A stretch of 64,000 nucleotides of DNA, taken from positions 2,432-66,431 of IMG/VR virus record IMGVR_UViG_3300050016_000168; one strand, written 5' to 3'. This DNA comes from a virus. The notes under the pieces are model-generated. The model saw only the letters and a list, made by a program, of their open reading frames with translations. It was not told where the DNA came from and did not search any database. Positions within the stretch are counted from its first letter, which is position 1. Each line of letters starts with the position of its first letter. Positions 1 to 58,492 of this stretch are shown in pieces. Both the position numbers and the translations under genes were made by a program.

Positions 1-25
1 CCGTGCCGATGCCATCGGCACCGTA

Positions 26-301
26 GTGGCCGAAGTCCCCGCCGCCGAAAAGGGCGCCCACAACGACTTCGAGGACGCTCTGATTTTGGAGTTTGAGGAC
101 GAAACGCGAGCCGTGGGGACTGACGGCGAACTTGTCAAGGGAACTCACACACGGCGTGTCTCCTTCGCGGTCAACCTGTTCTCTGCCGATCCGGCAATGC
201 GTGAGATGGCCGAGCAGATGCAGAGCCACCTTAAGGGCGACGGCAACATTGCCGCTGACCCCACGTACAACGACGGTCCACTGTTTGAGGTGGTGAAGTG
301 A
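26..301 (+). CDS. Hypothetical protein, possibly 5'-truncated by the window edge
   Basis: ORF whose stop overlaps the next start (GTGA); lies in the tail operon. Confidence 0.5.
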   Translation: MAEVPAAEKGAHNDFEDALILEFEDETRAVGTDGELVKGTHTRRVSFAVNLFSADPAMREMAEQMQSHLKGDGNIAADPTYNDGPLFEVVK

Positions 302-852
302 TAGGAGGCCGAGGCCGCTGGGTCACGGTGGGCGGTGTGCGCATCAATCGCGCCAAACTCACCCGTGACCAACGCATTCGCCTCGCGCTTCTACGCATGG
401 TGTTGGCTCCTCTTGCTCTTATGGGGTTTTTTATGACGGGCCAGTTTTCGCGCGTAGGCGGTGGCTTCGCGCTCGACATAGTTACCGGTCGCGCAGCAGG
501 CCCCGGTGCCCGCACCATGTACCTTGCGCTCATCGCCTCGGGCAGCGCCCCGACTGACGCCACGACCAACGCGACGATGGTCGAGATTTCAGAGACAGGG
601 TACGCCCGCCAGGCGATGGCCATGACTGCGCCGACAGCGGCCACACCACCGAGCACGAACAACACGTCGCTCCTGACCTTCGGACCGGTGAGCGGCACCA
701 TGACCACCGTCACCTATGCCGCATTGGTGTCGAGCGCATCAGGCACCACAGGCGACTTCGTTGCCTTCTGGACGCTGACCACAGCGCGCACCCCGGTCTC
801 GGGTGACTCGTTGCAGGCGGCTATCGCCGCATTTTCCCTAACCGACGAGTGA
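298..852 (+). CDS. Minor tail / tail-fibre-associated protein with a 45-aa basic N-terminal extension
   Basis: YLAL...EIS..GYARQ and FWTLTTARTPVSGDSL motifs typical of small phage tail proteins; alternative ATG at 433. Confidence 0.7.
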   Translation: MIGGRGRWVTVGGVRINRAKLTRDQRIRLALLRMVLAPLALMGFFMTGQFSRVGGGFALDIVTGRAAGPGARTMYLALIASGSAPTDATTNATMVEISETGYARQAMAMTAPTAATPPSTNNTSLLTFGPVSGTMTTVTYAALVSSASGTTGDFVAFWTLTTARTPVSGDSLQAAIAAFSLTDE

Positions 853-855
853 TAT

Positions 856-2772
856 GTGGAGTCAAGGCGTAGCGCACTAGCAATCGCCTGGCAGCCCGCG
901 CCAGATGCGTGGGAACCGTCGCCCGAGCCCAATCGTCGTCGGCGTTACACACCACTCTGGACGCCGCGCATCATTCCGGGCTTTCTCAATGCCATCGCGT
1001 TGGTCGGCTCGCGTGGCGCGGCGGTGCAAGCAGCCTCAGGTGTCGCGCTCACCACGTGGGCATATGGCCAGACTCCGACCGCAGGCAACACCCTGGTCGC
1101 TACCGTCACGGTGACAGGCTCGGCGACATTGCCCACCACGCCCAGCGGGTGGAGCATCGGCAAGCAGGTGGCGGGCACCTCCACGTCTGCGACCGTCTAT
1201 TACAAAGTGGCGGCGGGCAGCGACGGGGTGCCCACCATCGCAGCCATCACCTCGGGTCTGATCGCGGGTCAGCTGTCTGAGTATTCAGGCGTCGGGCTGA
1301 TCGACCAATCAGGTTCAGCAACCAGCACGAGCAGCCCTGTCACCGCTACCGCTGGGGGCGCGAACGCCGCCACTGGCGAACTGCTGATCTGTGCAGGTGC
1401 CGACTGTCGATCTACGGCCAGAGCCAGTAACGACACATGGACGAGCAACGACGGGACGGTGACCTTGGCAGGGTCAAACAACGGCACCAGTAGCGTCAAC
1501 CATTACAGCTTCGGGGCCATCGTCGGCACAACAGCAACGACGGCACAGACGTCAGTGATGACGCTCTCGATCACCACCAGCATCACCGGCCTGGCGGTGG
1601 TCAATGTCAGTTTCAAGCTGGGCGCGACCACATGGGCGATCGCGGCTGCGGGTGCAGCGGTTGCAAGTGGAACGGGCGCTCTCATCTCTACCGAAGTCAT
1701 CGCTGGTGCGGGTGGTGCAGTGTCAGGCGGCTCGGGCAGTCTCGGTGTGTTCGATCCCATTGCCGCTGCCGGCGTGGCTGCCTCAAGCGGTGTGGGTGCG
1801 CTCACCAATGCTGATGCCATCTTTGGTGTTGGTGCGGCGACGGCAGGCGGCACGGCCGACATCGAGGAGTTCAATCCCATCGCCGCAACTGGTGCGGCTA
1901 CGTCAACGGGCACAGCTGCGCTCATTGCACTCGATGTCATGGCAGGCACGGGCGCGGCGACAGCTGGAGGTGTTGGCGCACTCATCGCCACCGACATGCT
2001 GGCCGCCACGGGCGCAGCTGTGGCCACCGGCACAGGCGCGCTCAAATCCACGGAGGTGATGGCCGGTACAGGCGCGGCCAGCGCCGCTGGTACTGCTGCA
2101 CTGATCGCCTTGGATGTGATGACGGCTGCGGGGAGCGCAGTGGCCACTGGCAGCGGCGACATCACCATTGCAGGAGTAGGTCCGACCACATGGGCCATCG
2201 CCGCCGCGGGAGCGGCTACAGCAGCGGGCACGGGCGCCATCACCACCAGTCAAGAGCTTGATGCTGCTGGTGGGGCTACAGCGGGTGGCGTGGGGGCTTT
2301 GAAGTCAACTGAGGCACTGGCGGGAACAGGCGCTTCTACAGCCGCAGGTTCGGCTTCTCTTGCCGTCCTGATGATGGTGGCCGGAGCAGCTGCTGCACAG
2401 GCCGGTGGATCAGGGTCGCTGACGTTGATCCTAACCCTCGCTGCCTCAGGTGCAGCGCAAGCCGGAGGTCTCGGAGATCTGCTTCCACCATCGATCGTAA
2501 TTCCCCTATACGTGATCGTCCATGCCTTCTCTCGAGACGGCAAGATCAGTGCGAATGCTCAAGGAGGCGCTTACCACTACGTCATCGGGACATATGGAAG
2601 CTACGCGAACACCACTTATGCCGGCTCCGACTTCGTTGGTGGCTCACAAATAACCGCCGCAGCTGTCGAGACCGCAGCTCAATCTCGAGATGGTAGAGTT
2701 CGAGCAGGTTCACGCGATGGCGTGGCTCCAGCTCAGTCCAGAAGCGGGAAAGTTCCAGCGGGAGTTGATTGA
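856..2772 (+). CDS. Ala/Gly-rich minor tail (fibre) protein with 20-aa repeats
   Basis: Thr/Gly/Ala-rich beta domain followed by about 14 degenerate 20-aa repeats. Confidence 0.75.
   Translation: MESRRSALAIAWQPAPDAWEPSPEPNRRRRYTPLWTPRIIPGFLNAIALVGSRGAAVQAASGVALTTWAYGQTPTAGNTLVATVTVTGSATLPTTPSGWSIGKQVAGTSTSATVYYKVAAGSDGVPTIAAITSGLIAGQLSEYSGVGLIDQSGSATSTSSPVTATAGGANAATGELLICAGADCRSTARASNDTWTSNDGTVTLAGSNNGTSSVNHYSFGAIVGTTATTAQTSVMTLSITTSITGLAVVNVSFKLGATTWAIAAAGAAVASGTGALISTEVIAGAGGAVSGGSGSLGVFDPIAAAGVAASSGVGALTNADAIFGVGAATAGGTADIEEFNPIAATGAATSTGTAALIALDVMAGTGAATAGGVGALIATDMLAATGAAVATGTGALKSTEVMAGTGAASAAGTAALIALDVMTAAGSAVATGSGDITIAGVGPTTWAIAAAGAATAAGTGAITTSQELDAAGGATAGGVGALKSTEALAGTGASTAAGSASLAVLMMVAGAAAAQAGGSGSLTLILTLAASGAAQAGGLGDLLPPSIVIPLYVIVHAFSRDGKISANAQGGAYHYVIGTYGSYANTTYAGSDFVGGSQITAAAVETAAQSRDGRVRAGSRDGVAPAQSRSGKVPAGVD
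1630..2480 (+). repeat. Degenerate 60-bp (20-aa) coding tandem repeat
   Basis: Units such as LIALDVMAGTGAATAGGVGA and LKSTEVMAGTGAASAAGTAA start at 1921, 1981, 2041, 2101. Confidence 0.8.
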
Positions 2773-2775
2773 TAA

Positions 2776-3093
2776 GTGCCGATCTCACCGTGGGTGGTAG
2801 GCCAGACGCATCCGACCTGGCAGATCCCCTGGACCAACGAGAGCGGCCCTGTCGACCTCACCGGCGCCACTGTCACGCTGTGGATCTTCACTCGAGAAGG
2901 AGCCTCGGTTCAGGGCGCCGGCGTCTGCACCGTGATCGGCAACCCGACGCTGGGCATCGTCACCTATGCGCCAGTAGTGGCTGACAGCTCAAAGGCGGGG
3001 AGCTTCTGGGTTGCTCTCAAAGCCGTCTACGGAGACGGCTCTGTGCTCTGGCAGCAGCCGGCAGATTCGTGGACAATTACGACACTGCCATGA
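2776..3093 (+). CDS. BppU N-terminal-like baseplate/tail protein
   Basis: PVDLTGATVTL...GIVTYAP..AD...AG pattern. Confidence 0.65.
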   Translation: MPISPWVVGQTHPTWQIPWTNESGPVDLTGATVTLWIFTREGASVQGAGVCTVIGNPTLGIVTYAPVVADSSKAGSFWVALKAVYGDGSVLWQQPADSWTITTLP

Positions 3094-3488
3094 GCACCTA
3101 TGGAAGCTTCGCTGGCGATGTTTACGCTGGTTCTGTCTACACCGGGCAGATGTTTGCCCTGGCGACCTCCTTTGCCATCCTCAGTGCCCTTTCTGCCCCG
3201 GGGTGGAGCATTGACTCGGTCAGCTACGGGCTGGCTCTGCTGGCTTATCAGTCGGAAGACACCCCAACCGCAGCGCTCTTCGGGTTCTCCGAGGCACCTG
3301 GAGGGGCGCCTTCGCAGTGGCTGGCTGCAACCCTCGGCATTTACGCCGGCCTCCCTAACGTCGCGACGATGAACGTCGGCAACGGTGGAGTGTTCGCTCC
3401 GGCCCGAGGTGACTACTGGTTCTGGGTCTGGTTGAGCGGTGGAGCTATCAATTCTCCGTATCTGGTCGGAAGCTTGGCAGCCAGCTGA
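3090..3488 (+). CDS. Hypothetical tail-region protein
   Basis: ATGA coupling at 3090; stop overlaps next start. Confidence 0.6.
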   Translation: MSTYGSFAGDVYAGSVYTGQMFALATSFAILSALSAPGWSIDSVSYGLALLAYQSEDTPTAALFGFSEAPGGAPSQWLAATLGIYAGLPNVATMNVGNGGVFAPARGDYWFWVWLSGGAINSPYLVGSLAAS

Positions 3489-5842
3489 TGGCACGCCTCA
3501 GGTACAACAACCAGCAGGGGATCCTTGGCGCTCAACTGCTCAGCGGCGGAACGACCATCACCTTTCAGAGTGTCCCAAGCTTCGCCACTCTTGTCGCTCC
3601 CGACTACATCGTGCTGGTCCTGGAGCCGGGAACGCTCAATGAGGAGGTTGTCCATCTCACCGCCTACACTAGCGGGCAACTCACCGGAACCGTAGCCAGA
3701 AGCCAGGAAGGTTCCCCCTCGAGCTTGACTCACGCTTTCTCCACGACTTGGCAGCATGGGCCGACTTCTAGTGACTTCTGGACTCGCAACGTCACCGTTC
3801 AGACCGCTGCCTACACAGCCAAAGATGGCGATGTGGTGCTGGCCAACGCGACCAGCGGCGCGATCGCCCTCACCCTGCCCGCAGTTGCCGCCAATATCCA
3901 AGTCATCGTCAAGAAGACGGACAACTCAGCCAACAAAGTCACGGTATCGCCGCAGTCAGGCACCATCGACGGAGCCGCCACTTTCACCATCTGGGGTCAA
4001 TACCACTCCATCACCTTCGTCTCGGACGGCACCAACTGGTTCGTAACCGAGACGCGGATCATGGACGGCAACGGCAACGTCGCAGCCGGGTCATTTAGTG
4101 CGTCTGTTGGCCCTTATACTCCAGATCCGAACCTCCCCAATGGCGTCGGAACGAGTGCTCTTCTCTATGACAAAGGTGCCCATCACACCGACTGGCGAAC
4201 AGCCTACGGCATCAAGATGGACGGGTTCCCGATTGCGGCCACGATTAACAACGGTTCACCGAACCTCGCGATCGGCTCCCCCTACTTCACCTCAACCGCC
4301 GTTGACGCCGGAAAGCTCGTCAAAATCGTGGGTGCGGGGGTTGCCGCCGCAGACTTCAAGGCTAGGGTACTGACCGTCACCGACAGCACCCACTGCGTGC
4401 TCGATACTAACGCCAGCACTTCTGTGGTCGCTGCCTTCTCCGTCGTGGGGACCGACAACACAACCGCCGTGAATAACGCCCTTCTCGACTACAAGAATTG
4501 GGCCGATTTATTCACTGGCCCCGGTCTCTGCTTGGTCAATGGAACACTAACCCCTACCTTCGATTTCTTTGCTGCTGGCAAGGGATGGCTCGGAAGTGGA
4601 ATAACCCCGGCGCGGATGCGGTCCGCTGGCGATACGGCCAGCGCTGCCTGGAACGGCACGTACATCATGCAATTGGCTGACGCGGTGCCTTTGGTCAAGA
4701 CAAACTCCACGGACACTACGATTCAGCGCTGCCGATTTCCGGTTGGCATTTCTTTCGGCTATTTCACGCCACAAACCAACGCCGCTAGCGTGGGCTGGCT
4801 TTGGAGTGGACTTGCGAACACGTCCTACTTTGGATGGACTTGGGGGCCGGTCACCTTTGATAACTGCTACACCGTAGTAAGTGTCGACCAGGGCCCCGGT
4901 GGGATCAGTGCCTGGAACCAGACCTGTTGGCTAATGGCGGGCGCAACCAAGCACCGGGTTATCGACTTTCTTTCCACCAACGTCATCAACCGCTTCGACT
5001 ATCTGGGCATCTTCAACCAAAGCGGGGCCAATGGCCACGGCGCGGTGATCCCGGACGACGCGGCCATAAACCTAAGCTCAAACGAACTCTTAATCGAGAT
5101 GTTCGACATTGAAGGCTGGTACAACCGGATTCTTGTCGCTAGCGGCACCGGAGCGGTGCATATCAAGACCGCCCACGTCGAGCACCACGTTTGGACGGGC
5201 GCTATTAACTTCGGCAGCGTTTTCGACTTCGCCAACGCGCCTTCAGAGATTGAGGACATCGTCATCTCGGGCAATTGCGATGCTACCTGTACGGGACCGG
5301 TCAACTGCTTCCACTCTCAAGCCGCTGCCCAGGTACTCGTTCGAGGTGTCACCTTCGCCGTGGTGCAGGCCAATGCGGGAGTCTTTTATGTCGCCTATGC
5401 CAGCCTTGGCACCCAGATCACCGTGCAGCAACTCTTCGACATCTTCGCTGGCGGGGCCAATGCCACCATCATCGTGCCCTGGGATGCCCCAGCTCTCAAC
5501 CAGTTTGTCTACAGCCCAGGGCGCGGGGCCAAACAGGCCCCTGCTTTCAACGCTGCCCCGGCCCCCGACCCCACCCAGGGAGAAACCTACGAAATGGCCG
5601 CCCTCACCGGGGCCGTAAATGTGGCCAATCCAATCAACTCGGTGCGCGGCATGAAGCTGCGAATGTACTGGAAACAAGACGGGGCAGGAGGTCATGCGGT
5701 CGCCTACACAGGAGCCAACTGGCGTTCGGTTGGGATCGCCGCCCAGACGACCACGCTCAGCACCTACACCATCGATGAGGCGGAATGCGTCGACGGCACG
5801 ATCTGGCGTGTCGTGCGTCTTGTTACCGGTCAGACCGTCTAA
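3488..5842 (+). CDS. Tail fibre / tailspike receptor-binding protein
   Basis: LTLPA...IVKK.D...TIDG fibre module, GTDNTTAVNNAL beta-helix cap, C-terminal KQDGAGGH module. Confidence 0.75.
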   Translation: MARLRYNNQQGILGAQLLSGGTTITFQSVPSFATLVAPDYIVLVLEPGTLNEEVVHLTAYTSGQLTGTVARSQEGSPSSLTHAFSTTWQHGPTSSDFWTRNVTVQTAAYTAKDGDVVLANATSGAIALTLPAVAANIQVIVKKTDNSANKVTVSPQSGTIDGAATFTIWGQYHSITFVSDGTNWFVTETRIMDGNGNVAAGSFSASVGPYTPDPNLPNGVGTSALLYDKGAHHTDWRTAYGIKMDGFPIAATINNGSPNLAIGSPYFTSTAVDAGKLVKIVGAGVAAADFKARVLTVTDSTHCVLDTNASTSVVAAFSVVGTDNTTAVNNALLDYKNWADLFTGPGLCLVNGTLTPTFDFFAAGKGWLGSGITPARMRSAGDTASAAWNGTYIMQLADAVPLVKTNSTDTTIQRCRFPVGISFGYFTPQTNAASVGWLWSGLANTSYFGWTWGPVTFDNCYTVVSVDQGPGGISAWNQTCWLMAGATKHRVIDFLSTNVINRFDYLGIFNQSGANGHGAVIPDDAAINLSSNELLIEMFDIEGWYNRILVASGTGAVHIKTAHVEHHVWTGAINFGSVFDFANAPSEIEDIVISGNCDATCTGPVNCFHSQAAAQVLVRGVTFAVVQANAGVFYVAYASLGTQITVQQLFDIFAGGANATIIVPWDAPALNQFVYSPGRGAKQAPAFNAAPAPDPTQGETYEMAALTGAVNVANPINSVRGMKLRMYWKQDGAGGHAVAYTGANWRSVGIAAQTTTLSTYTIDEAECVDGTIWRVVRLVTGQTV

Positions 5843-5959
5843 TGAAAACTGCACTCTAATTGACCACATACTGCGACCCGAATTTCACACATAAGCCAAC
5901 TAGCCTCCAGCAACAACCGACGGACAAGTAGACAATTACGGCAATTTCCTAAGGAGGGA

Positions 5960-6832
5960 TTGATGAGCAACGAAGAGAAGACAGACAGGAAGACCCCCGA
6001 CACCGACCTCGAGAAGGCCAAGGCGGCTCAAGCCAAGAAGGAGCAGGCGGCGCTCGAGAAGCTGGAGAACGAGCCCATCCCAGGCAAGCGCTTGGGCCGG
6101 TTGCCGACTCCGCCGGCGATGCTCAAGAAGAACCTTCAGATGGCCCGCTACCTGCCATCAATCCTTCCGGCCGTACCAGCGCTGCCGATCGACGTGACCG
6201 ACGGTGTTCACGACTGGCCTATGTATCTCAACGACCATCTGGGAGACTGCGCCTGCGCGGCTCCTGCGCACATGGAGGAGATCTTCGCGGCCGACACCGG
6301 CGTGATGCGGATCCCGACCGACGCTGACGTCCTGGCGCTCTACGAGCTTCAGGGCTACAACCCCGCCGACCCATCAACCGACCAGGGCTCATCGATGGGG
6401 AACGTGCTGATCGACTGGCGCACCCAGTGGTCGGCCTCCGGCGTCTACGCCTACTGCCAGGTCGACCAGACCAACGAAGACCATCTCAAGCTCGCAATCT
6501 GGCTCTTCCGCGGCCTCTACATCGGCATCGCTCTGCCTCTCACAGCGCAGGGCCAGCAGATCTGGGACGTCGTGCCAGACGTTCCCGGCCGCAACGAGCC
6601 CGGATCGTGGGGCGGCCACGCGGTCAACGTGGTGTCCATCAACTCGGATGAGTCACGCGACGTCATCACCTGGGGCCAGCGCCTCAAGATGACCAAGGCG
6701 TTTTGGGACGTTTATGTTGACGAGGTCTACTGCGTGGTTACGAAAGATCTGCAATCCAGTGCTAAGCTGGCCGCCAATGGGCTGGATGTAGATCAGCTCG
6801 AGGCAGACATGGCGGAAATCGGTAGCGCGTAA
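5960..6832 (+). CDS. Papain/C39-like cysteine peptidase
   Basis: NDHLGDCACAA (Cys), WGGHAV (His), ITWG; SD AAGGAGG upstream. Confidence 0.7.
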   Translation: MMSNEEKTDRKTPDTDLEKAKAAQAKKEQAALEKLENEPIPGKRLGRLPTPPAMLKKNLQMARYLPSILPAVPALPIDVTDGVHDWPMYLNDHLGDCACAAPAHMEEIFAADTGVMRIPTDADVLALYELQGYNPADPSTDQGSSMGNVLIDWRTQWSASGVYAYCQVDQTNEDHLKLAIWLFRGLYIGIALPLTAQGQQIWDVVPDVPGRNEPGSWGGHAVNVVSINSDESRDVITWGQRLKMTKAFWDVYVDEVYCVVTKDLQSSAKLAANGLDVDQLEADMAEIGSA

Positions 6833-9181: not shown

Positions 9182-9423
9182 CGTCTGCCGATCATGCGCG
9201 GTCTGAAGAAGGCGACTGGACTGTCTGAGTTTTTACATTCTTGGCAATCTGGCTGACGGCAGAGGTGGAAGTCGACACACTCGCAGCCCGGAGCTTCGCA
9301 GACCATGTAGCTTGGATCGATGTCCGGCCGATCACCCTCAGCTCCGTGCTCGAGGAGCGTGTGGCCACAACGGACACACTTAGCGTCGGTGATCGACGAC
9401 AGACCGATCACTATGGGTGCCAT
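9175..9423 (-). CDS. Cys-rich hypothetical protein
   Basis: CVRCGH...C...C.C..F Zn-binding pattern. Confidence 0.55.
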   Translation of the reverse strand: MAPIVIGLSSITDAKCVRCGHTLLEHGAEGDRPDIDPSYMVCEAPGCECVDFHLCRQPDCQECKNSDSPVAFFRPRMIGRRW

Positions 9424-11909
9424 TTTTCAGCTTGCCCCCACTTCTTGCCGATCTCGATCTCAACGTCGAAGGGGACGTCCGTCTTGAGTAGAGTGGAGCT
9501 GGTCATGACCTGGTAGATCTGATGCAGCACCGGCTCGAGGATATCCTCACGGACCTCAAAGTTGATCGAGTCGTGGATTGGAAAGAGAACGTATGCCCCC
9601 TTCGGTAGCTGGTCGTGAAGCTTGACCATAGCGTCTAGGCAGATGTCCGACGCGGTGCCCTGAATAGGAAAGTTCACAGCCTCTCTGCCGACACCGTTGG
9701 CGGTACCAGGTGGGATGAACGGCCAGCGCCGGCGACGTCCGAGCGGGGACTCGATGTACTGCTGCTTGAGAGCCAGTACCTTGGTCGCATCGATCCAGGC
9801 CTTGAGCTTGGGGAACCCGTTGAGGAAGCGGTAGAGAAACAACTCGGCGTCGTCGACCGACCACCACTCGGCGTCTGGATCCTTGTATTCCAGCTCGGCA
9901 CCGGAGACCAGCGACTGTGCGCTGCGGCCATAGATGATGCCGAAGTCGACATGCTTGGCCATCACGCGTTCTGACTTGGTGACCTTGTCAGCTGCTTTCT
10001 TGAAGATCATCGAAGCGACTTCGGTGTGAATGTCGCGGCCGTTGCGGAAAACATCTTTCATGTCTTCGTCGTCGGTGATCACCGCAGCTACACGCAGCTC
10101 CAGCTGGGAGTAGTCAGCGGCCACCCACACGTACCCAGGCGGAACGGTGAAAGCGTTGCGAATCTGAGGTCCCATGAGGAGAGGAATGTTCTGCAGGTTC
10201 GGCGAAGCCGATGAGAGCCTTCCAGTCGACGTACCGAGCAGTCGGAAGTCGGAGCGGATACGCCCGTCCGGCCCGAGCTTCTCGAGGATCCCGTCGATGT
10301 AAGTGGCCAGCACCTTCTTGAGCAGGCGCAGCTCGACGATGTCGGTCAGACCCTGCTTAATTTTCGGGTCAGTGGCTCTCTGCGCCATCCCGAAGAGGAT
10401 GTCCTTGGCGGTGGTGTCGGCCGGCATCTCCATAGCTCGCTTGCCAGAGAGGATGGGTTTGGGCTGCCGCCAGTGCGTATAGATGAGCTTGCTGAGCTGC
10501 GGCTGCGAGTTGGGGTTGAAGTCTTTCATCCCGTGCTCAAGCGCCATCGCTTGCAGCGAGGCATGCTTGGACTCGATGGAGGCCCGCGTGGTGCCGCCCA
10601 GCTCCTCGAGGTATGGTCGATCGATCTTCACCCCGTGCAGCTCAATCTCAGCCAGCGCATAGGTCGCCGGCATGAGCAGGCTGCGAAGCAGTGACTCGAG
10701 CTTGGGTGACTCCTCGGTCATGTCGCAGGCCTGGTCACGTTTCAGCCGTGAGGTGTAGCCGAGGTCTTTGGCCTGATAGGCGTAGAGCGACTGCAGTCGG
10801 ACAGCGCCCCACGATCCAGGGGTGAAGTCGAAGTCGTAGTCCTCAGCGTCGTAGCGGATCCGCGCCTGGGCCTTCAAGCCGTGAGCCTTGTACTTGCCGC
10901 TGATCGGACGCTCGTCAAGCAGGTAGTGCTGGAGCATGCCGTCGATCGCGCGCGGTCGGATGCGCTCGTTGAAGTAGACGTCAAGGAACTGGATGTCGAA
11001 CTTGGCATTCCAGAGCGCGAACTCACCAGCGTAGGTCGTAAGAAATTTCCTCAAGGCAACCTTCATGAGCGGGACTCGGAGCAGGAACGGGTTGATGATC
11101 ACGCCAGCGTCGTCGTTGCCGATGCCGACCGAGATGATGCGGTCGACGATCGGGTCCGGACCAGAGGTCTCGAGGTCGATAGTGAGGTCGGGGAGCTTCT
11201 CGATCGCATTCAGACTGCGGACGGCGATGCCCAACGTGGCCGGAACCACGACGCTCACTGCCATGTCAGGCATCGGCGCTGAGTACTTGAACCACTTCTC
11301 AATGTCGTCGCCGAAGTCGCGGAAGTAATCGCCATCGCGGAGCACGGCGGCCGGGTGGTAGGTGGCGACCGTGTAGACCATGCGGCCACCCCATTCGGTC
11401 CAGACCCCGCGGCCGTGCCAGCGTGTGATCGGCGCTGCTTTGTCGACTCTCAGGACGGCAGTTAAAGCAACGCCGCCGACGGCGAGGATCTTGGTCGGCG
11501 CGACCAGCGCCAACTCCTCTTCCAGCCGTTGGCGGCAGCACTTGATCTGCGCGATCCCCGGCGTCTTGTTGCCTGGCGGATGGCAGAGCACCGCGTTGGT
11601 GTAGTAGACGTCGTCAGGTTCGATGCCTGCGCTGCGGAGGGCTACTCTCAGGAGGCGACCAGCCTGGCCGACGAAGGGCTGCTTGTGTGAGACTTCGGTG
11701 TTGCCTGGCGCCTCACCGACCACGACGTAGCCGTCGCCCGGACCGAAGCCTTGAACGGTCGGGCTCGACTGCAGCGGACACTTCTCACACCTGGTTGGTA
11801 GGAGTGATCTGCTCAGCTTCCAGTGCCTCCATGATGGCCACGGATACGGCAGCGCAGTGAAGCGCCTCCTTAGCTCGAGCCTCCGGTGTGTGACGTTCCG
11901 GGATGTCAT
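9411..11909 (-). CDS. Family A DNA polymerase with N-terminal family-4 uracil-DNA glycosylase domain and 3'-5' exonuclease (start uncertain)
   Basis: UDG GEAPG/YHPAA with Cys ligands; exonuclease DLETSG, NAKFD, YQAKD; TGRLSS, ADYSQLELR, AKHVDFGIIYG, IHDS. Confidence 0.95.
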   Translation of the reverse strand: MTSRNVTHRRLELRRRFTALPYPWPSWRHWKLSRSLLPTRCEKCPLQSSPTVQGFGPGDGYVVVGEAPGNTEVSHKQPFVGQAGRLLRVALRSAGIEPDDVYYTNAVLCHPPGNKTPGIAQIKCCRQRLEEELALVAPTKILAVGGVALTAVLRVDKAAPITRWHGRGVWTEWGGRMVYTVATYHPAAVLRDGDYFRDFGDDIEKWFKYSAPMPDMAVSVVVPATLGIAVRSLNAIEKLPDLTIDLETSGPDPIVDRIISVGIGNDDAGVIINPFLLRVPLMKVALRKFLTTYAGEFALWNAKFDIQFLDVYFNERIRPRAIDGMLQHYLLDERPISGKYKAHGLKAQARIRYDAEDYDFDFTPGSWGAVRLQSLYAYQAKDLGYTSRLKRDQACDMTEESPKLESLLRSLLMPATYALAEIELHGVKIDRPYLEELGGTTRASIESKHASLQAMALEHGMKDFNPNSQPQLSKLIYTHWRQPKPILSGKRAMEMPADTTAKDILFGMAQRATDPKIKQGLTDIVELRLLKKVLATYIDGILEKLGPDGRIRSDFRLLGTSTGRLSSASPNLQNIPLLMGPQIRNAFTVPPGYVWVAADYSQLELRVAAVITDDEDMKDVFRNGRDIHTEVASMIFKKAADKVTKSERVMAKHVDFGIIYGRSAQSLVSGAELEYKDPDAEWWSVDDAELFLYRFLNGFPKLKAWIDATKVLALKQQYIESPLGRRRRWPFIPPGTANGVGREAVNFPIQGTASDICLDAMVKLHDQLPKGAYVLFPIHDSINFEVREDILEPVLHQIYQVMTSSTLLKTDVPFDVEIEIGKKWGQAEKWHP

Positions 11910-44361: not shown

Positions 44362-44688
44362 GCGTCGTACGTGGGCGCCAAGTGCTTCATGGTCGAGAGG
44401 ATCATGGATTGCTGGTTAGAAGGTGGAGGTCAGCGTGTCGGTGCGATGGTCTGGGCTTGGCATGAGTACGAGGCGTACGACACTCAACACCGGCCGTTTC
44501 CCCACCTCATGGTCATGACTCCAGCAGGTCTTGTCTGTATGGATTGCCCAGAGACGGATCCTCCTCACAGCTATTGGGTGCGGGACGGCGAGCTGCCAAA
44601 TGTGACCGTCTCCCCGTCGCTCAACGTCAACGAAGGTAACCCGGGAGCGTGGCACGGCTGGCTGATTGGGGGAGAATTGACACCGTAG
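44358..44688 (+). CDS. Hypothetical protein (DUF6527-like); start at 44358-44371 uncertain
   Basis: TVSPSLN....WHGWL..GEL. Confidence 0.55.
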
Positions 44689-47600
44689 TGGGCACCACGG
44701 TTAAAGACCTGAAGCGAAAGTCGAAGACGATCAAGTCCACTCCCGTGCTCCGTGCGACCAGAACTCCACTGGCTCTGCGGACACCCGAGCGGCCAATCCC
44801 GGTCTCAATTGTCCGCCAGCCTTACCAGCGCCGGCGCAAGTACAACGCCGAGTACATGGTCAAGGCGGTCAAGGTTGCACTGCGACCTGACGAGCTGATC
44901 CACATACCTCAGAGAGACCGCGAGATGGTCAAGGCGGCAGCTGACAAGATCTCACGCGGAGCTTCAATCGCATCTCTTGGTGGCCGGGGGGGAGGTCCAA
45001 GCGGACGCACACCGGGGCCACCGATGCCGGTCTCGGTGACTCAACTGGCGCAGGAGGCAGCGCGCGCGTTGCGTCCGTCCTCTGGCACCACACCAGCTGA
45101 CATCGAGGTCGCACTCCGTAGACAGGGAATTGACTGGGTTGAGCCATTCGCTCCCGGTCGACCTCTCACGCCCTACTACGGATACAGCCGACGAATGCGG
45201 CAAATGGACTACAAGGTCGGTCGAAACATCACAACCGACACCAGGCCAGATCGTTTGCCATTCTCATTGCTCAAACAGCTCAACGAGGGCTACGACATCG
45301 CGTCGATCTGCATCCGCCACATCATCAGCGACATGCGGGCCATGAAGCTCGGCTTCGGCCCCATGGACGATTACGACGGTGAAGTCTCGAAGGACATCCT
45401 GGAAGCAAAAAAGTTCCTCCGTAAACCTGACGGCAACCGGCCATTCCCGATCTGGCTGGCGCAGTGGATGATGGACATTCTCCGCTATGACGCCGGATGT
45501 CTTTATCGAGAGCGCAATGCCGCCGGCAAGCTGGTCGCCCTCAAGGTCGTCGAAGGCACCATCGTTGCTCCGATCGTCGACTACTACGGTGATCGGCCAA
45601 TCCCACCAGCGCCATTCCTGCAGCAGTTCGTGAATGGCATTCCGTGGGACTGGGCGACCACTGACGACGTCATCTACGAACCGCACTGGCCGCTGCCCGA
45701 GAGTCCATATGGCGTTGCACCGGCGGAGACCATCGTGCTCAATGCCAACACCGACGTCCGCTTGCAGCTCTTCTTCCTCCAATTCTTCACCGCTGGGGTG
45801 GTTCCAGAGATGCTGCTTGAGGCGCCAGCAGAGATGACTGACCCGGACGCGATCTCCGAGCTGCAGGAGGACTGGGACAACTTCTACGAATCCAACCAGA
45901 CCGGACGTCATGGGGCCCACTGGGTGCCTGCGGGGACCAAACCCTGGCCCTACAAACCGACGGTGTTCGATCCCAACTTGTCCAAGTACGTGATGATGCG
46001 GTCGGTTGCCGCCTTCGGTCTCATGCCTCAGGATCTGGGATTCACCGAGTGCTATTCCGAGGATACCGAGTGCTTGACCGCCTCCGGTTGGAGGCAGTAC
46101 CACGAGCTGAGCCGGGATGATCAGATCGCCACCTACAACCCTGAGACCCAACAGATCGAGTACCACTGTCCGATCTCGATCCACATTCATCAGCACAAGG
46201 GTGAGATGGTCCGTTTCAAGAGTCGCAGTGTCGATGTCATGGTTACGCCGCACCACCGGATGTGGGCTTGGAAGCAGACCCAGGACAGGACGCCACAGAA
46301 CCGTCCCTGGGACTTCATCGAAGCTCAGGATTTGGCTTCCGCCTCGAGATTCGGATTCGTCAACATCACCGAAGGACGCGACCATCAGCTCTGCCACGAC
46401 CACGTTTCGCGTGAGACGTATGACGGAGTGGTATGGTGCCTCGAAGTTCCGCATCACCTGTTCGTAACCCGGCGCAATGGAGTAATCGCAGTCCACGGCA
46501 ACACTGTCAACCGCTCGACTGCAGACGCTTTGGCAGATACACAGTTCAGGATTTCCACGCTGCCCAACACCGAGATCTACGAAGCGATCATCAACATGGT
46601 CATTCAGGACGACCTCGGTCTGCCCGTGGAGGTCCATTTCGACACCGGGCGGGAGAAGAAGGATCGACTGATGGAGGCTCAGGCCCACCAGATCTATGTC
46701 GCTATGGGCTCGGAGTCTCCGGACGAGGTGCGGGATGAAATCCTCGGTCTGCCTGTGGACAACGACAACCGGCTCCCCCGCTTCTACGACTCAGACCGAT
46801 TGGGTCCTGTGCCCCTGGCCTGGATCATGGCCGTCTCTGGAACCATCGATCCGAGCACCCTGTCTCCGTTCGGGGTGATCCCGCCATTGCCATTCGTCCC
46901 CATCATCGGCCAGAAGGAGCCATCCGGTCCGGCGGAGCCAGACGGATCTCCGTCCAGCGGAAGCTCTACACCAAAGAAACCAAAGCCGAAAGCGGCAGCA
47001 GCTGCAACCCCCACAGCACCGCTGCCCGTCCTCCCCACCGGTACCAAAATCCCGCCCGAGACGGCGGTCAGTCAGCCTGGCCAACACGCTAAGGATTCGC
47101 ACGAGCAGGTGGGCGACATGCACACCGATCCGGAGGGGCGAATTGATCAAGACGGTCATGCCGATGTGCCGACAGTCAAGCTCCGTGGTGCCGCTGCGCG
47201 CAACGAGTACCGCGTCGACGCCGGCCAATTTAATGCTCCTCCAGCCGGTACGACCGAAGGATCTCGAGGCCCGCGGCTGCCGCAGGGATCATCGGCACCG
47301 AAGCGGACATCTCCTCCACGGCGCTCTGCGAATGGCAACGCTCTGAAGGAAGGCGGAATCACATCTGGGACAGCGCTGGCAGGCATCGATGGCCCAAGCA
47401 CCGATGACGAAGACGATGACGTAATCCTGCTGTCGCAGGAAGCTCGTAAGGAACTGCTCCGCTGGCGTGATGTCGCGCGCAAGAAGGCTAAGGACAAGAA
47501 GAAGCAGCGCTACTTCGAGTCCGGCATTATCCCTCAGGAAGTCTCCACCCGGCTGCACATGGCGTTGGCCCAAGCGCAGAACCGAGAGGATGTGGACAAG

Positions 47601-48119
47601 GTCTTCGAGGCCGCCATGGATCCTCGGCCGACAAACGCCAAGCCGGAGCCACTAGACGTACATAAGATCAACGGTGTGGCCATACGCGCTGGCAATACCG
47701 GCCGCGTCCTCATGCTCCAGCGCGCGATGGTGCAAGGCGATCCCGCAGCTGGCCAGTGGGAGTTCCCCGGTGGACACAAGGGCTACGAAGAGACCGACCA
47801 GGAAGCGGGCTATCGAGAGTGGCAGGAGGAGACCGGCATCTTCTTTCCCAAGAAGGCGCAGCTCTTCTCTAGGTGGGAAAGCTTCAACGGACGCTACATC
47901 GGTTGGGTATACGAAGTGCCGACCGAGGATGATGTTCACATCGACGGTCGTGAGGATGTGAAGAACCCGGACGGCGACACGTTTGAAGCGGTGGCGTGGT
48001 TCGATCCGCGCGACCTCGCCAACCACCCGGGGATCCGTCCTGAGTTGAAAGCGGACATCGCTGCGGTACAGTCAGCATTGACCTGGCCGCGGAAGAAGAA
48101 TGAACTGGGACAGGAGTAA
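44688..48119 (+). CDS. Portal protein with mini-intein and C-terminal Nudix hydrolase domain
   Basis: SPYGVAPAE, GVVPE, AFGLMPQDLGFTE-intein-TVNRS; Nudix box at 47772-47840. Confidence 0.88.
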   Translation: MGTTVKDLKRKSKTIKSTPVLRATRTPLALRTPERPIPVSIVRQPYQRRRKYNAEYMVKAVKVALRPDELIHIPQRDREMVKAAADKISRGASIASLGGRGGGPSGRTPGPPMPVSVTQLAQEAARALRPSSGTTPADIEVALRRQGIDWVEPFAPGRPLTPYYGYSRRMRQMDYKVGRNITTDTRPDRLPFSLLKQLNEGYDIASICIRHIISDMRAMKLGFGPMDDYDGEVSKDILEAKKFLRKPDGNRPFPIWLAQWMMDILRYDAGCLYRERNAAGKLVALKVVEGTIVAPIVDYYGDRPIPPAPFLQQFVNGIPWDWATTDDVIYEPHWPLPESPYGVAPAETIVLNANTDVRLQLFFLQFFTAGVVPEMLLEAPAEMTDPDAISELQEDWDNFYESNQTGRHGAHWVPAGTKPWPYKPTVFDPNLSKYVMMRSVAAFGLMPQDLGFTECYSEDTECLTASGWRQYHELSRDDQIATYNPETQQIEYHCPISIHIHQHKGEMVRFKSRSVDVMVTPHHRMWAWKQTQDRTPQNRPWDFIEAQDLASASRFGFVNITEGRDHQLCHDHVSRETYDGVVWCLEVPHHLFVTRRNGVIAVHGNTVNRSTADALADTQFRISTLPNTEIYEAIINMVIQDDLGLPVEVHFDTGREKKDRLMEAQAHQIYVAMGSESPDEVRDEILGLPVDNDNRLPRFYDSDRLGPVPLAWIMAVSGTIDPSTLSPFGVIPPLPFVPIIGQKEPSGPAEPDGSPSSGSSTPKKPKPKAAAAATPTAPLPVLPTGTKIPPETAVSQPGQHAKDSHEQVGDMHTDPEGRIDQDGHADVPTVKLRGAAARNEYRVDAGQFNAPPAGTTEGSRGPRLPQGSSAPKRTSPPRRSANGNALKEGGITSGTALAGIDGPSTDDEDDDVILLSQEARKELLRWRDVARKKAKDKKKQRYFESGIIPQEVSTRLHMALAQAQNREDVDKVFEAAMDPRPTNAKPEPLDVHKINGVAIRAGNTGRVLMLQRAMVQGDPAAGQWEFPGGHKGYEETDQEAGYREWQEETGIFFPKKAQLFSRWESFNGRYIGWVYEVPTEDDVHIDGREDVKNPDGDTFEAVAWFDPRDLANHPGIRPELKADIAAVQSALTWPRKKNELGQE
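46050..46502 (+). mobile_element. 151-aa mini-intein in the portal
   Basis: CYSEDTECLT..GW, VTPHHRM, YDGVVWCLEVPHHLFVTRRNG...HGN followed by Thr. Confidence 0.92.
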
Positions 48120-49833: not shown

Positions 49834-50493
49834 TTGTGTTGGACTTGCGGCTGTATGATTCCCTCCGATCCTCATGGTGATCTCAGAAACATCATTACTA
49901 TGCAACTCGATGCGGCGACCAAGACGGATGCCTTCCAGTCGAAGAACCACGACCAGGGAGTGCCGCAGGCAGTAGCCAACATTACCAAGACGCTCTCGCT
50001 TTACCGCGGGCGCTCCGCCGGCGTGTACCCATTCAACGCCATGAAGGAGTTGGGTGCGGAAGTTGCTCTCAAGGCGGTGGCTGAACAGTCGGAGCGGCAG
50101 TACACTCTCGCTCTCGCTTACCCAGCCAATCGAGCCGATCGTTCTGTGGCGGCTGACGGATTCCGCGACTTCGCTCCCGCCGACGTGCTCGAAAATGCGG
50201 CTTGGGGCTATCTCAAGAAGGGGGCGAGAGTTGGTCTTCTCCACCGCAAGGGAACTGAGGGTAGTGGTGTAGTTGTCGAGTCGTACATCTATCGCGGACC
50301 GGACTGGGAAGTTGTAACGCCCAGCGGCGAAAAGACGATGATCAAGTCCGGCGATTGGCTACTCGGTACTATTTGGGACAACCTAGCATGGAGAGCAATC
50401 AAGTCGGGAAAGCTGACAGGAATGTCCCCACAGGCTAAAGTCAGACGTCGTATTCCCAGTGCAGAAGCTCTGGCTGGGTTGAGGAGAGACTGA
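49834..50493 (+). CDS. XkdF-like prohead protease
   Basis: LAYPA, LLH, VVESYIY, GDWLLG, IKSGKLTGMS. Confidence 0.8.
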   Translation: MCWTCGCMIPSDPHGDLRNIITMQLDAATKTDAFQSKNHDQGVPQAVANITKTLSLYRGRSAGVYPFNAMKELGAEVALKAVAEQSERQYTLALAYPANRADRSVAADGFRDFAPADVLENAAWGYLKKGARVGLLHRKGTEGSGVVVESYIYRGPDWEVVTPSGEKTMIKSGDWLLGTIWDNLAWRAIKSGKLTGMSPQAKVRRRIPSAEALAGLRRD

Positions 50494-55617: not shown

Positions 55618-56049
55618 ATGAACGATAAGCTGCCCGACGAGACGAAGGCTGACCCGACGAAGCTCGGTCCAGGCGAATCCTGGGACGCTACCGCGGGAGC
55701 CACCAAAGAAGCGGAGAAGCAGGGGATCGACATGGCCCAGGTCCAGGGCTCAGGAGCAGGTGGCACTGTGACCAAAGACGATGTGACGGCTCACAAGGCC
55801 GCGGCAGCGAAGATGGTCAAGAAGACGATGATCAACACCGGCTTCCACACTCGGAGGTGGGATGCCATCCAACGCTTTGAAGACAGAATTGGCGAGGACG
55901 ACCAGACGATTCAGTTGGCCGGAACAACGCTCGAGCTGGAACCTGGAGAATCAGCGTTGGTCTCCGTTTCAGCGGATTTTGAAGATCCTTGGCTGAAAGA
56001 GGCTAAAGTGGTGGCGTCCAAGAAGGACGGCTCGAAGAAAGAGGTCTGA
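55618..56049 (+). CDS. Protein with N-terminal E3-binding (PSBD)-like domain
   Basis: ATAGATKEAEKQGIDMAQVQGSGAGGTVTKDDV. Confidence 0.75.
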   Translation: MNDKLPDETKADPTKLGPGESWDATAGATKEAEKQGIDMAQVQGSGAGGTVTKDDVTAHKAAAAKMVKKTMINTGFHTRRWDAIQRFEDRIGEDDQTIQLAGTTLELEPGESALVSVSADFEDPWLKEAKVVASKKDGSKKEV

Positions 56050-56051
56050 AC

Positions 56052-57317
56052 GTGATGAATCGATCAGTTGCTCCGCTCCACGGCTGGGACTCTCGGTTCC
56101 ATCTTGCCGTCATCGATGGCGAAGTCCGTCGAGTCCCCCGCATCGGCGGCGGCGTCAACACTGCTTACGCTACGCCTCAAACCACCATCGGTCTCATACC
56201 GGAGGTGACCCGCGGTGTGCCGCTCGCTCCCTCCTACTGGTTCAAGGTCAAGGCTCCGAAGTACAAGCCTGACCTGACCATGATCGAAGACGACACGCTG
56301 CAGGGCTCGATGGTCAAGGTTTACGAGACCATCCCCGGCCTTCGCTACGACTCTCACAGCTGGGACTCCTTCCTCTACATGGACGTGATGCCTCTGCTCG
56401 CCAAGTTCGAGTTGGGCTCCACCGACACGGTGACCACAGCCACCGCCTCAACCACCATGGGTGCTGTTGCCGCCGGCGTCACCGCAGTCACCTTTGCTAT
56501 CTCGATCGCAACCGGCGCCTTCATCGTCATCGATACCGGCGGGCTCCTCGAGGCGAACTACGTCAAGACCGGTGGCACCTCCGCCACGCTTCAGTTCCCG
56601 CTCAACTACGCTCACGGGGCTCTCACGGCCGTCACAGTGCTGACTGGGCACTCCTTCTCGCTGCTCAACAACGCCGGAACAGTCGGCAACCAGCCGCCTT
56701 CTGCCACCATCACCGACTTCGACGGTGAGGAATGGCGTCAGCTGGCGGCAGCTCAGCTCGACAAGCTGACCATCAAAGGCAATGCGACCGGATTGGCCGA
56801 CTACAGCAGCACCTGGTTTGCCAACCCATCAATTACACCCACGCCTCCAACAGCGGCGTTTACAGTGCTCGATGCAGCTCCCGGCTGGACGGCGATGGTT
56901 CAGATCGGCGGCGTCTCCAAGAACTATGTCATGGATTGGGAGGTTGATCTGTCGCGCAGCGTGAAGCCGATCCCGGCCTTGACTGGGACGCAGGAGTACT
57001 TCATGTACTTCGCCGACGCCATCACCTGCCCGGGCAAGCTCACCGTGATCGAGCAGTCCGGCGCACCGGAGTTGACTCAGTACCAGAGCGGAGCCGCATT
57101 TACGCTCGACATCTTCGTCTACGATCGGCTCTCGGGCGATGCCATGTACATCCATTCCAGCAAGTGCCGATTCAAGACAGGCGAAATCGACCGCTCGAAG
57201 ACGTGGGTCGAAGCGCCGCTCACTATGGATTTGCTGCCGACCTCAACCGACGCTGGAGCTGGTGGCGTATCTCCGCTCAAGATGATGTTCGGAAACACAC
57301 AGGTTACGGCATACTAG
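56052..57317 (+). CDS. Major tail tube protein
   Basis: GLIPEVTRG N-terminal motif, HSFSLLN...QPPS.T..D; precedes chaperones. Confidence 0.8.
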   Translation: MMNRSVAPLHGWDSRFHLAVIDGEVRRVPRIGGGVNTAYATPQTTIGLIPEVTRGVPLAPSYWFKVKAPKYKPDLTMIEDDTLQGSMVKVYETIPGLRYDSHSWDSFLYMDVMPLLAKFELGSTDTVTTATASTTMGAVAAGVTAVTFAISIATGAFIVIDTGGLLEANYVKTGGTSATLQFPLNYAHGALTAVTVLTGHSFSLLNNAGTVGNQPPSATITDFDGEEWRQLAAAQLDKLTIKGNATGLADYSSTWFANPSITPTPPTAAFTVLDAAPGWTAMVQIGGVSKNYVMDWEVDLSRSVKPIPALTGTQEYFMYFADAITCPGKLTVIEQSGAPELTQYQSGAAFTLDIFVYDRLSGDAMYIHSSKCRFKTGEIDRSKTWVEAPLTMDLLPTSTDAGAGGVSPLKMMFGNTQVTAY

Positions 57318-58018: not shown

Positions 58019-58492
58019 ATGCCGATCGACGTTAGAGCCGCCCAGGACGCTCTTGACCGCCTGATTGCGGCTCTTCCGGCGTCAGCGGCTCACGTCTCGA
58101 GCGAGATGGCGTCGGAGGGCCAACGGGCGGCTCGCGCCAACCTGAAGGATCCAGTCGGTCCTCTGGCCGAGTCGATTCTGATGGAAGGGCCAGATCACGT
58201 CGGGACATTCGCTTATCGCACCAGGCTGGGACCGACGCTCGATTACGGCCGTCAGCGAGAGCTTGGCGGCCCGATCGATCCCGTGAACGAATCGATCCTC
58301 ACGGCTTCACGCCGCGCGCCCGGATACTGGATGTGGGACTACATGGACGGCCGCGGTGAGCGTGAAGTCTTCGCCGGCCATGTCGACCAGCTCGGTCAGC
58401 ACTATCTGAAGCGTGGAGTAGAAGACTCGATCCCCGCATTCATGCGCATTGCCCGTAAGGTCTGGGGCGACCTGATGAGGATCGCTGAGTAA
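58019..58492 (+). CDS. HK97 gp10-like tail completion protein
   Basis: LAESI...GPTLDYGRQRELGG...YLKRG. Confidence 0.65.
   Translation: MPIDVRAAQDALDRLIAALPASAAHVSSEMASEGQRAARANLKDPVGPLAESILMEGPDHVGTFAYRTRLGPTLDYGRQRELGGPIDPVNESILTASRRAPGYWMWDYMDGRGEREVFAGHVDQLGQHYLKRGVEDSIPAFMRIARKVWGDLMRIAE

Follow-up and report, generated by a model that had tools for sequence, protein, structure and literature searches.

The protease Prp cleaves N-terminal peptides off the capsid and scaffold proteins of staphylococcal phage 80alpha, and the phi13 major tail protein bears its motif as well (PMC5744158); the motif reads MLxx(D/N)LQ(F/L)F'A, with cleavage before A-(S/H)-K-K (PMC9405229). Here we describe Arg-rich N-terminal extensions, or leaders, on three tail proteins of a siphophage from a peat metagenome: the products of two genes named after their first nucleotide, gene 298 and gene 856, and the major tail (tube) protein. 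All three are encoded on the plus strand of a window of 64,000 nucleotides, bases 2432-66431 of one 66,431-bp contig with 60% G+C (IMG/VR record IMGVR_UViG_3300050016_000168), and positions given below are those of the window. A reading made from the letters of the window (the sequence-only reading) had invoked the removal of staphylococcal capsid and scaffold N termini by Prp as the precedent for one leader-dependent system acting on these tail proteins, and the cited precedent is genuine (PMC5744158). As in 80alpha, short N-terminal pieces stand on nonhomologous virion proteins of one phage (PMC5744158). In contrast, Prp leaders are 13 to 14 amino acids long and have a motif in common with ribosomal protein L27, whereas the leaders described here are 33 to 45 amino acids long and mutually unrelated.

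A second point of comparison is the Gp80-like "bead" of phage fibers. In phages GP4 and A1002, Gp80-like dimers are threaded on a rope protein and bind linear segments of this partner via beta-sheet augmentation (PMC13730344), and the arm segments of phi812 bind linear segments of a scaffold partner via added beta-strands (PMC13433997). The body of the gene 298 protein has the fold of the GP4 and A1002 fibers and of the phi812 and A511 arm segments, and the adjoining repeat protein, encoded by gene 856, could be the rope or scaffold. Those phages are podophages or myophages; the present phage, unlike them, is a siphophage, equipped with a tape measure and a tube of the double-domain type. In the Pseudomonas podophage A1002, the fiber II protein gp41 has about 30 extra N-terminal residues without density, and the authors suspect cleavage (PMC13730344, 2026). 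The gene 298 protein resembles gp41 in being a Gp80-like bead that is longer at the N terminus than its relatives; phage type and host differ, however, the likeness is one of description, and cleavage of gp41 was suggested rather than measured. The tube protein shares its double-domain fold with the tubes of T5 (pb6), P74-26 and SH-Ab15497, and its 33-residue hairpin arm was seen in 12 of the 54 tube-family N termini read. A literature search on tail-tube pro-peptides turned up nothing on N-terminal processing of tube proteins among the entries that it listed.

We conclude that the three leaders are real, translated, lineage-specific extensions that arose separately and are most likely retained as accessory assembly or docking arms, a reading to which we give, taken as a whole, an even chance of being correct. 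The observation is real and, as things stand, its biology modest; the bodies of the three proteins belong to known families.

Translation of the leaders

The extensions run from 298 to 432 (45 residues), from 856 to 987 (44 residues) and from 56055 to 56153 (33 residues; from 56052 if a preceding GTG is counted). Arginine accounts for 15-18% of the leader residues; its share is 2-4% in the bodies and 4.6% in a set of seven large structural open reading frames (ORFs). The Arg-rich extensions that had been reported on three tail proteins are all present, with one correction: the tube leader begins at ATG 56055 and has 33 residues. That the leaders are translated, as the sequence-only reading had proposed, is borne out by codon differences for the tube, by homolog conservation for all three and by a retained gene overlap for gene 298. 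Each leader is conserved in homologs and is therefore more than a chance open frame. On these comparisons, translation appears certain for the tube leader, strongly supported for that of gene 298 and well supported for that of gene 856.

The tube leader was compared with that of IMG/VR locus L006, whose tube protein is 91% identical. By hand count, the 33 codons show 11 synonymous and 2 nonsynonymous differences, and 31 of the 33 residues are identical. We place the start at ATG 56055 rather than at GTG 56052 because that GTG is GCG in L006. No in-frame ATG, GTG or TTG lies between 56055 and 56205, which upholds the earlier remark that leader and body of the tube protein meet without a start codon. 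The leader is present in 12 of 54 tube-family N termini, the window's own counted, in a set that leaves out two longer matches, P0213 and P0223; the 11 homologs that have it are 68-91% identical to the window protein overall, and the pieces H-G-W-D-S-R-F and P-R-I-x-G-G are conserved. Homologs that start at the body are P0152 (~81% identity), P0159 (68%) and all 40 sequences at 60% identity or below. At six distant tube loci a stop lies 1-15 codons ahead of the start, so these are truly short forms.

Gene 298 lies behind a small tail-cassette gene (26..301, plus strand) whose stop overlaps the GTG start as GTGA, a coupling already pointed out in the sequence-only reading and seen directly in the sequence. 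The GTG is preceded by a Shine-Dalgarno sequence, GAGGTGG; none was seen ahead of ATG 433, directly behind the leader, or ahead of TTG 1000 in gene 856. Homologs of the upstream gene sit directly 5' of Gp80-like genes in loci L016 and L017, and in L017 (~55% identical) the homologous gene overlaps the long-form GTG by the same 4 nucleotides. Among the best 120 of 197 gene 298 homologs with E values of 0.001 or less, 25 are long forms and 95 are short. Even where the bodies are no more than about 49% identical, long forms can be aligned across the leader, of whose 45 residues 8-34 are identical, and a Met stands at the short-form start position in 2 of the 23 long forms listed.

The leader of gene 856 (856..987) is Pro/Arg-rich and ends L-W-T-P-R-I-I-P-G. 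There is no ATG, GTG or TTG in frame between position 856 and TTG 1000, and the junction codon is AAT (N-A-I-A-L-V-G) where 20 of 24 homologs start M-A-x-A-L-V-G. The AAT codon is not an assembly slip, because contigs of two other studies agree with it, with 0 differences. One of the 24 homologs, P0144, bears a leader, and its BLASTP alignment with the window protein extends into it. A search of the whole library with residues 1-110 returned 95 matches, 78 of which begin at subject residue 2-8, and three of which (P0272, P0284 and P0144) align from within the leader. The extensions of P0334 and P0310 share the motif [LI]-W-[TR]-P…[IV]-[ILV]-P-[GD], which brings to five the distant homologs in which it recurs (P0272, P0284, P0144, P0334 and P0310). 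Four of the six leader-bearing gene 856 proteins, the window's own included, have no junction Met.

It could be argued that the leaders of genes 298 and 856 are annotation artifacts, the true starts being ATG 433 and TTG 1000 and the upstream spacer being open by chance. The short forms begin exactly at the junction, ATG 433 is present, G+C at third codon positions (GC3) is low in the leaders, and the gene 856 leader overlies a terminator-like hairpin. However, the leaders are conserved as protein in many homologs, the good Shine-Dalgarno sequence belongs to GTG 298 and not to ATG 433 or TTG 1000, and the GTGA overlap is kept in L017. A start at TTG 1000 would moreover cost four N-terminal residues that are conserved family-wide, and for the tube an artifact of this kind is impossible. 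We regard this explanation as very improbable. Nor are the leaders assembly errors, because independent contigs show 0 differences at the junctions: in four peat or permafrost runs from different studies, contigs are letter-identical to window positions 1-1400 where they cover it. Such identical contigs confirm the sequence and carry no codon-position information on the leaders. The calling of start sites in phage genomes rich in G+C is frequently questioned, and here three long extensions are genuine coding sequence; the likely corrected annotation is ATG 56055 for the tube and GTG 298 and GTG 856 for the fiber genes.

Separate inheritance of the three leaders

The sequence-only reading had joined the leaders into a common maturation or assembly system, and this part is not supported: their profiles are unrelated, no Prp motif is present and they are inherited separately. 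Between the tube and fiber leader profiles hhalign gives a probability of 0.1%. Searched against the six-frame genome and against the closest phage, G001, hidden Markov models (HMMs) of the leaders pick up no gene other than their own. The sole cross-match, a weak one in a set of 265 proteins, is of the tube-leader HMM to two fiber leaders that consist of a hairpin only, P0017 (E 0.005) and P0016 (E 0.044). ESM Atlas searches with the leaders alone gave best scores of 0.85-0.88, below the 0.9 bar, and a sequence search of solved structures gave no significant match.

The P-x4-G spacing at the ends of the leaders, which had been taken as their shared feature, is indeed present in all three leaders of the window, but it is weak evidence. 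When each leader is shuffled, 1.6-4.6% of the shuffles have it in their last ten residues, and some shared gapped residue pair occurs in the last ten residues of 6.1% of shuffled leader triples; the leaders (from about 80 genes), the motif and the junctions were all picked after inspection. Within the families, 9 of the 12 leaders of tube proteins have it, as do 6 of the 23 of fiber proteins and 4 of the 6 of gene 856 proteins. On alignment of homologs the leaders are kept in close relatives and missing from distant ones, and P-x4-G is kept in part of each family. A second candidate for a shared cleavage motif, [VTIL]-P-[RK]-[IV], was rejected, as it also occurs in capsid and scaffold proteins and its 12 occurrences in ORFs of at least 80 codons in six frames are close to the expectation from composition (a rough estimate).

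The leaders contain no Prp motif. Their junctions read G-F-F/M-T-G (gene 298), G-F-L/N-A-I (gene 856) and G-G-G/V-N-T (tube), and only the F-F of gene 298 is similar. For the G-G of the tube, a double-glycine leader of the bacteriocin type was a further idea considered. Prp itself (PF04327) was found in none of four records, namely the phage and three Actinomycetota metagenome-assembled genomes (MAGs) with related tube genes, for which completeness is not given; the PF04327 control was positive in 3 of 14 known genomes (Bacillus, Thermotoga and Lactococcus).

Inheritance also differs among the leaders. G001, which is collinear with the genome from the portal to just before the distal tail cassette, keeps the tube leader and has no homolog of gene 298 or gene 856. 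In the bead-domain tree of gene 298 homologs, the distribution of long forms calls for four changes, with a single short form placed inside the window's clade of 17 long forms. For the gene 856 family, none of 21 IMG/VR loci with ATG or GTG at the junction (some of them near-duplicates) has the leader, and all 21 have an in-frame stop 0-24 codons upstream. Apparent leader matches in this locus search, with query residues starting from 4 to 41, were dismissed as joined low-complexity pieces of other frames or as stop-bounded stretches. A metagenome scan yielded 15 loci, with a gene 856 homolog in none. From these comparisons the three leaders look like unrelated, separately inherited, independent add-ons.

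Predicted folds and a candidate bead-on-rope fiber

The leader of gene 298 is predicted to form a basic beta-hairpin (amino acids 8-17, nucleotides 319-348) followed by a hydrophobic helix (amino acids 23-45, nucleotides 364-432). AlphaFold2 with the family alignment gives the hairpin and the 23-residue helix a predicted local distance difference test (pLDDT) score of 85-92, and then the bead domain. The helix has a Kyte-Doolittle 19-residue mean of 1.9 and a low hydrophobic moment and is not amphipathic. In P0016 and P0017 the hairpin is kept and the helix is absent.

The body of gene 298 (433..852, plus strand) is a Gp80-like fiber bead domain. It passes Pfam PF23140 at amino acids 59-181 with 49.5 bits against a cut-off of 27 (E 6.7e-13), and with VIA-align it has the fold of GP4 fiber I (8jou_a, Z 11.4, root mean square deviation 2.7, 109 aligned residues, model residues 49-182). 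It also resembles the neck proteins of Bas63 and Sf14, A511 gp105 and the phi812 arm segment, in all cases from residue 47-49 onward, and other VIA-align matches to the bead fold are 6hhk_B (Z 7.5) and 9fko_A (Z 7.3). None of the solved bead relatives aligns with residues 1-46. Foldseek rows of about 190 columns had raised the possibility that the leader helix is the helix of the A511 gp105 and phi812 arm segments; it was discarded, the VIA-align matches beginning at residue 47-49. No Gp80-like match was found among cultured phages by megablast and tblastn.

The hydrophobic helix raises the alternative that the gene 298 leader is a membrane anchor, with its basic end inside and the hydrophobic stretch as the span. 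The gene would then perhaps have two products, a long form that starts at GTG 298 and is tethered to the membrane, and a virion bead that starts at ATG 433. Most long forms have a Kyte-Doolittle 19-residue mean of about 1.4-2.2 with a low hydrophobic moment, the leader's eight Arg and one Lys lie mostly ahead of the hydrophobic stretch, and the window has the junction Met. However, the rarity of that Met among the long forms (2 of 23) and the hairpin-only P0016 and P0017 argue against an anchor, as do the lack of a signal-peptidase-like (A-x-A-like) site in the window, judged by eye, and the position of the gene within a tail cassette. We rate an anchor as very unlikely, on a par with the annotation artifact.

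The body of gene 856 (988..2772, plus strand) has a conserved N-terminal domain and then about 13-14 diverged 20-residue Ala/Gly/Thr-rich repeats, roughly at amino acids 270-540 (nucleotides 1663-2475), with an autocorrelation of 0.37-0.40 at lags 20 and 40. On this architecture the protein is a candidate rope for the beads. A bead gene next to or near a repeat-protein gene is found in the window (298-852 and 856-2772), in L017 (2013-2558 and 3583-5427) and in L050 (92-520 and 534 onward); since the two adjoin here and the pairing recurs in L050 and L017, a chain-like bead-on-rope fiber in a siphophage is plausible. The arrangement of beads on a rope has so far been solved only in podophages (GP4 and A1002) and in myophage baseplates. 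A complex prediction with two gene 298 copies and the gene 856 leader (amino acids 1-46) gave a score of 0.00 (mark 0.32) and speaks neither for nor against binding.

In the tube leader, AlphaFold2 with the family alignment predicts a hairpin at amino acids 15-28 (nucleotides 56097-56138; pLDDT 71-76) on a Gly-rich linker (pLDDT 57), and this linker differs in length and sequence among relatives, as would be expected of a tether more than of a protease site. The tube body (56154..57317, plus strand) is of the double-domain type: Foldseek matches it to the SH-Ab15497 major tail protein (8xan_A, E 2e-12, target TM-score (TMt) 0.80), the P74-26 tube and T5 pb6, with E values up to 1e-6. It is ~31% identical to an Arthrobacter phage "major tail protein", and Pfam Phage_tube_2 is below its cut-off (23.1 bits against 27). 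The placement of the gene fits a major tail tube: the head-tail genes come before it and those of the chaperones and the tape measure after it, the order being 56055-57317, 57350, 58019 and then, for the tape measure, 58492-61209.

Retained arms or removable pieces

In the reading that we favor, gene 298 would be translated from GTG 298, coupled to its upstream gene, placing a basic beta-hairpin and a hydrophobic helix ahead of the bead. The tube would be translated from ATG 56055 and carry a small beta-hairpin on a flexible Gly-rich linker. Gene 856 would be translated from GTG 856, reading through what is a terminator-bearing intergenic spacer in relatives to give a Pro/Arg-rich arm with L-W-T-P...P-G. 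The arms would probably be kept in the virion, where they may add contacts in bead-on-rope assemblies; by analogy, beta-strand addition could serve here, being the partner-binding mode of the bead family in solved phages.

Several observations weigh against retained arms. The leaders diverge faster than the bodies. The fiber helix equals a membrane span in hydrophobicity, a strange property in an arm that is soluble. The structural matches span model residues 47/49-184, leaving the leader without a solved counterpart. The leaderless relatives (P0012, P0152, P0159 and all distant homologs) indicate that the arms are dispensable, which also fits a removable pro-piece, and a cleavage of the approximately 30 extra N-terminal residues is suspected for A1002 gp41.

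The leaders could thus be pro-pieces removed by a host or phage protease, serving as latches against premature joining of subunits. Tube proteins must avoid premature polymerization. The leaders are translated, but there are relatives that do without them, and a Gly-rich or flexible stretch joins each of them to its body. The suspected cleavage of the A1002 gp41 N terminus (PMC13730344) and the Prp motif on the phi13 major tail protein (PMC5744158) point in the same direction. Against this, the leaders have no common junction motif, they do not fit the Prp motif and Prp was not found in the phage and the three MAGs, the tube linker is variable in length and sequence, and the leaders are not co-inherited. 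The only protease recognized in the phage is a prohead serine protease (49834..50493, plus strand; Pfam Peptidase_S78_2, E 4.4e-11; PHROG head maturation protease), for which there is no link to the tail leaders. A prohead protease normally acts within the procapsid. We consider removal to be the main rival explanation, though an unlikely one and clearly less probable than retention; if any of the arms were cleaved, it would be among very few cases of tail-protein pro-peptides.

A related and improbable variant is that, in the group's actinobacterial siphophages, modular beta-hairpin arms on the tube and on Gp80-like beads are displaceable or removable latches, each capping its own subunit up to its incorporation in the tail and then being shed or tucked away. 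If it were true, the likeness of the tube leader to P0016 and P0017 would reflect real kinship, and the arms would be a tail-side counterpart of capsid pro-peptides.

Origin of the leaders

The leaders have a GC3 of 0.60-0.64, as against 0.75-0.78 in the bodies, and a high G+C at first codon positions. On these values their make-up is that of translated GC-rich spacer, and their richness in Arg seems best explained by birth in GC-rich noncoding DNA rather than by a common signal.

A trace of such an origin may lie in gene 856, whose leader contains an imperfect RNA/DNA hairpin followed by TTTCTC (925..986, plus strand), with a minimum free energy of -21.3 kcal/mol and a z score of -2.18; 5 of 200 shuffles fold equally well. 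Terminator-like hairpins with T-runs stand directly before gene 856 homologs in L037 (2985-3045), L049 (2930-2990) and L051 (2975-3040), with z scores of -2.8 to -4.5, and by eye in L040 (about 2940-2990); transcription may be punctuated just before the gene 856 fiber gene in several IMG/VR phages. The weaker hairpin of the window lies at the position of the relatives' terminator, and this suggests that the gene 856 arm arose through loss of the former start and a shift of initiation to a site farther 5', the motif then being kept.

The same hairpin permits the view that the gene 856 leader works chiefly at the RNA level, as a leaky terminator or attenuator that separates genes 298 and 856, its translation being a by-product of a lost start codon. 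In favor are the hairpin itself with its following UUUCUC and the strong hairpins of terminator type that the relatives have in this place. However, L-W-T-P lies 5' of the 3' arm of the hairpin and is conserved as amino acids across bodies that are 28-45% identical, four of the six leader-bearing proteins have no junction Met, and a terminator scan found none at the gene 856 leader. We think a mainly RNA role the least probable of the explanations considered. The three extensions show how intergenic spacer, in one case with a former terminator in it, can give rise to new protein segments that are then kept.

The phage, its host and neighboring genes

The 66.4-kb genome encodes a terminase, a portal-NUDIX fusion, an XkdF-type prohead protease, a scaffold-like protein, a capsid protein, the 420-residue tube protein, two small genes in the chaperone position, a 905-residue tape measure and minor tail proteins; replication genes and an integrase are encoded on the opposite strand. 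One piece of a minor tail gene recurs at both ends of the contig, and the genome is therefore circularly permuted or terminally redundant. This minor tail gene spans the record ends (window 61585-64000, then genome 1-732); the end repeat is ~130 bp with at least one mismatch, and a naive join creates a false stop. Genes 298 and 856 lie within the distal tail cassette, right after the wrap-around.

No close cultured relative was found by DNA (megablast and tblastn against cultured phages), and the sole protein matches to cultured phages are the tube proteins of Arthrobacter and Thermoanaerobacterium phages at 25-31% identity. The three MAGs with related tube genes belong to Acidimicrobiales, Ferrimicrobium and Mycobacteriales. 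An actinobacterial peat host is likely. The first 1.4 kb of the window is present in 15 metagenome runs on peat or permafrost, which belong to 12 studies. The phage appears to form a widespread, almost clonal population.

Compared with its closest relative (window 1-6000 against L006/G001 (L032)), the genome is collinear from the portal to genome nucleotide 2295 and then has a different distal tail cassette; similarity resumes at the homolog of window 2776-3093. On this comparison the distal tail cassette appears to be a swapped host-range module.

Two unusual gene fusions were seen elsewhere in the window. The portal carries a C-terminal NUDIX domain (1156 amino acids, 44649-48119), and a family A DNA polymerase carries an N-terminal domain of the uracil-DNA-glycosylase superfamily (9411-11909, minus strand). 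A 290-residue protein encoded 3' of the tail genes (5960-6832) belongs to PHROG 19005, of unknown function, and has no Pfam match; its G-D-C-A-C-A-A could be a cysteine-peptidase site, and the protein is possibly a lysin. Directly upstream of the tube gene, positions 55618-56049 encode a 143-residue protein in which Pfam recognizes, at E 1.4e-07, an E3-binding (peripheral subunit-binding) domain. A near-identical N-terminal segment of this 143-residue protein is found in G001 (L032 6134-7297), fused there to a homolog of the protein encoded at 5960-6832.

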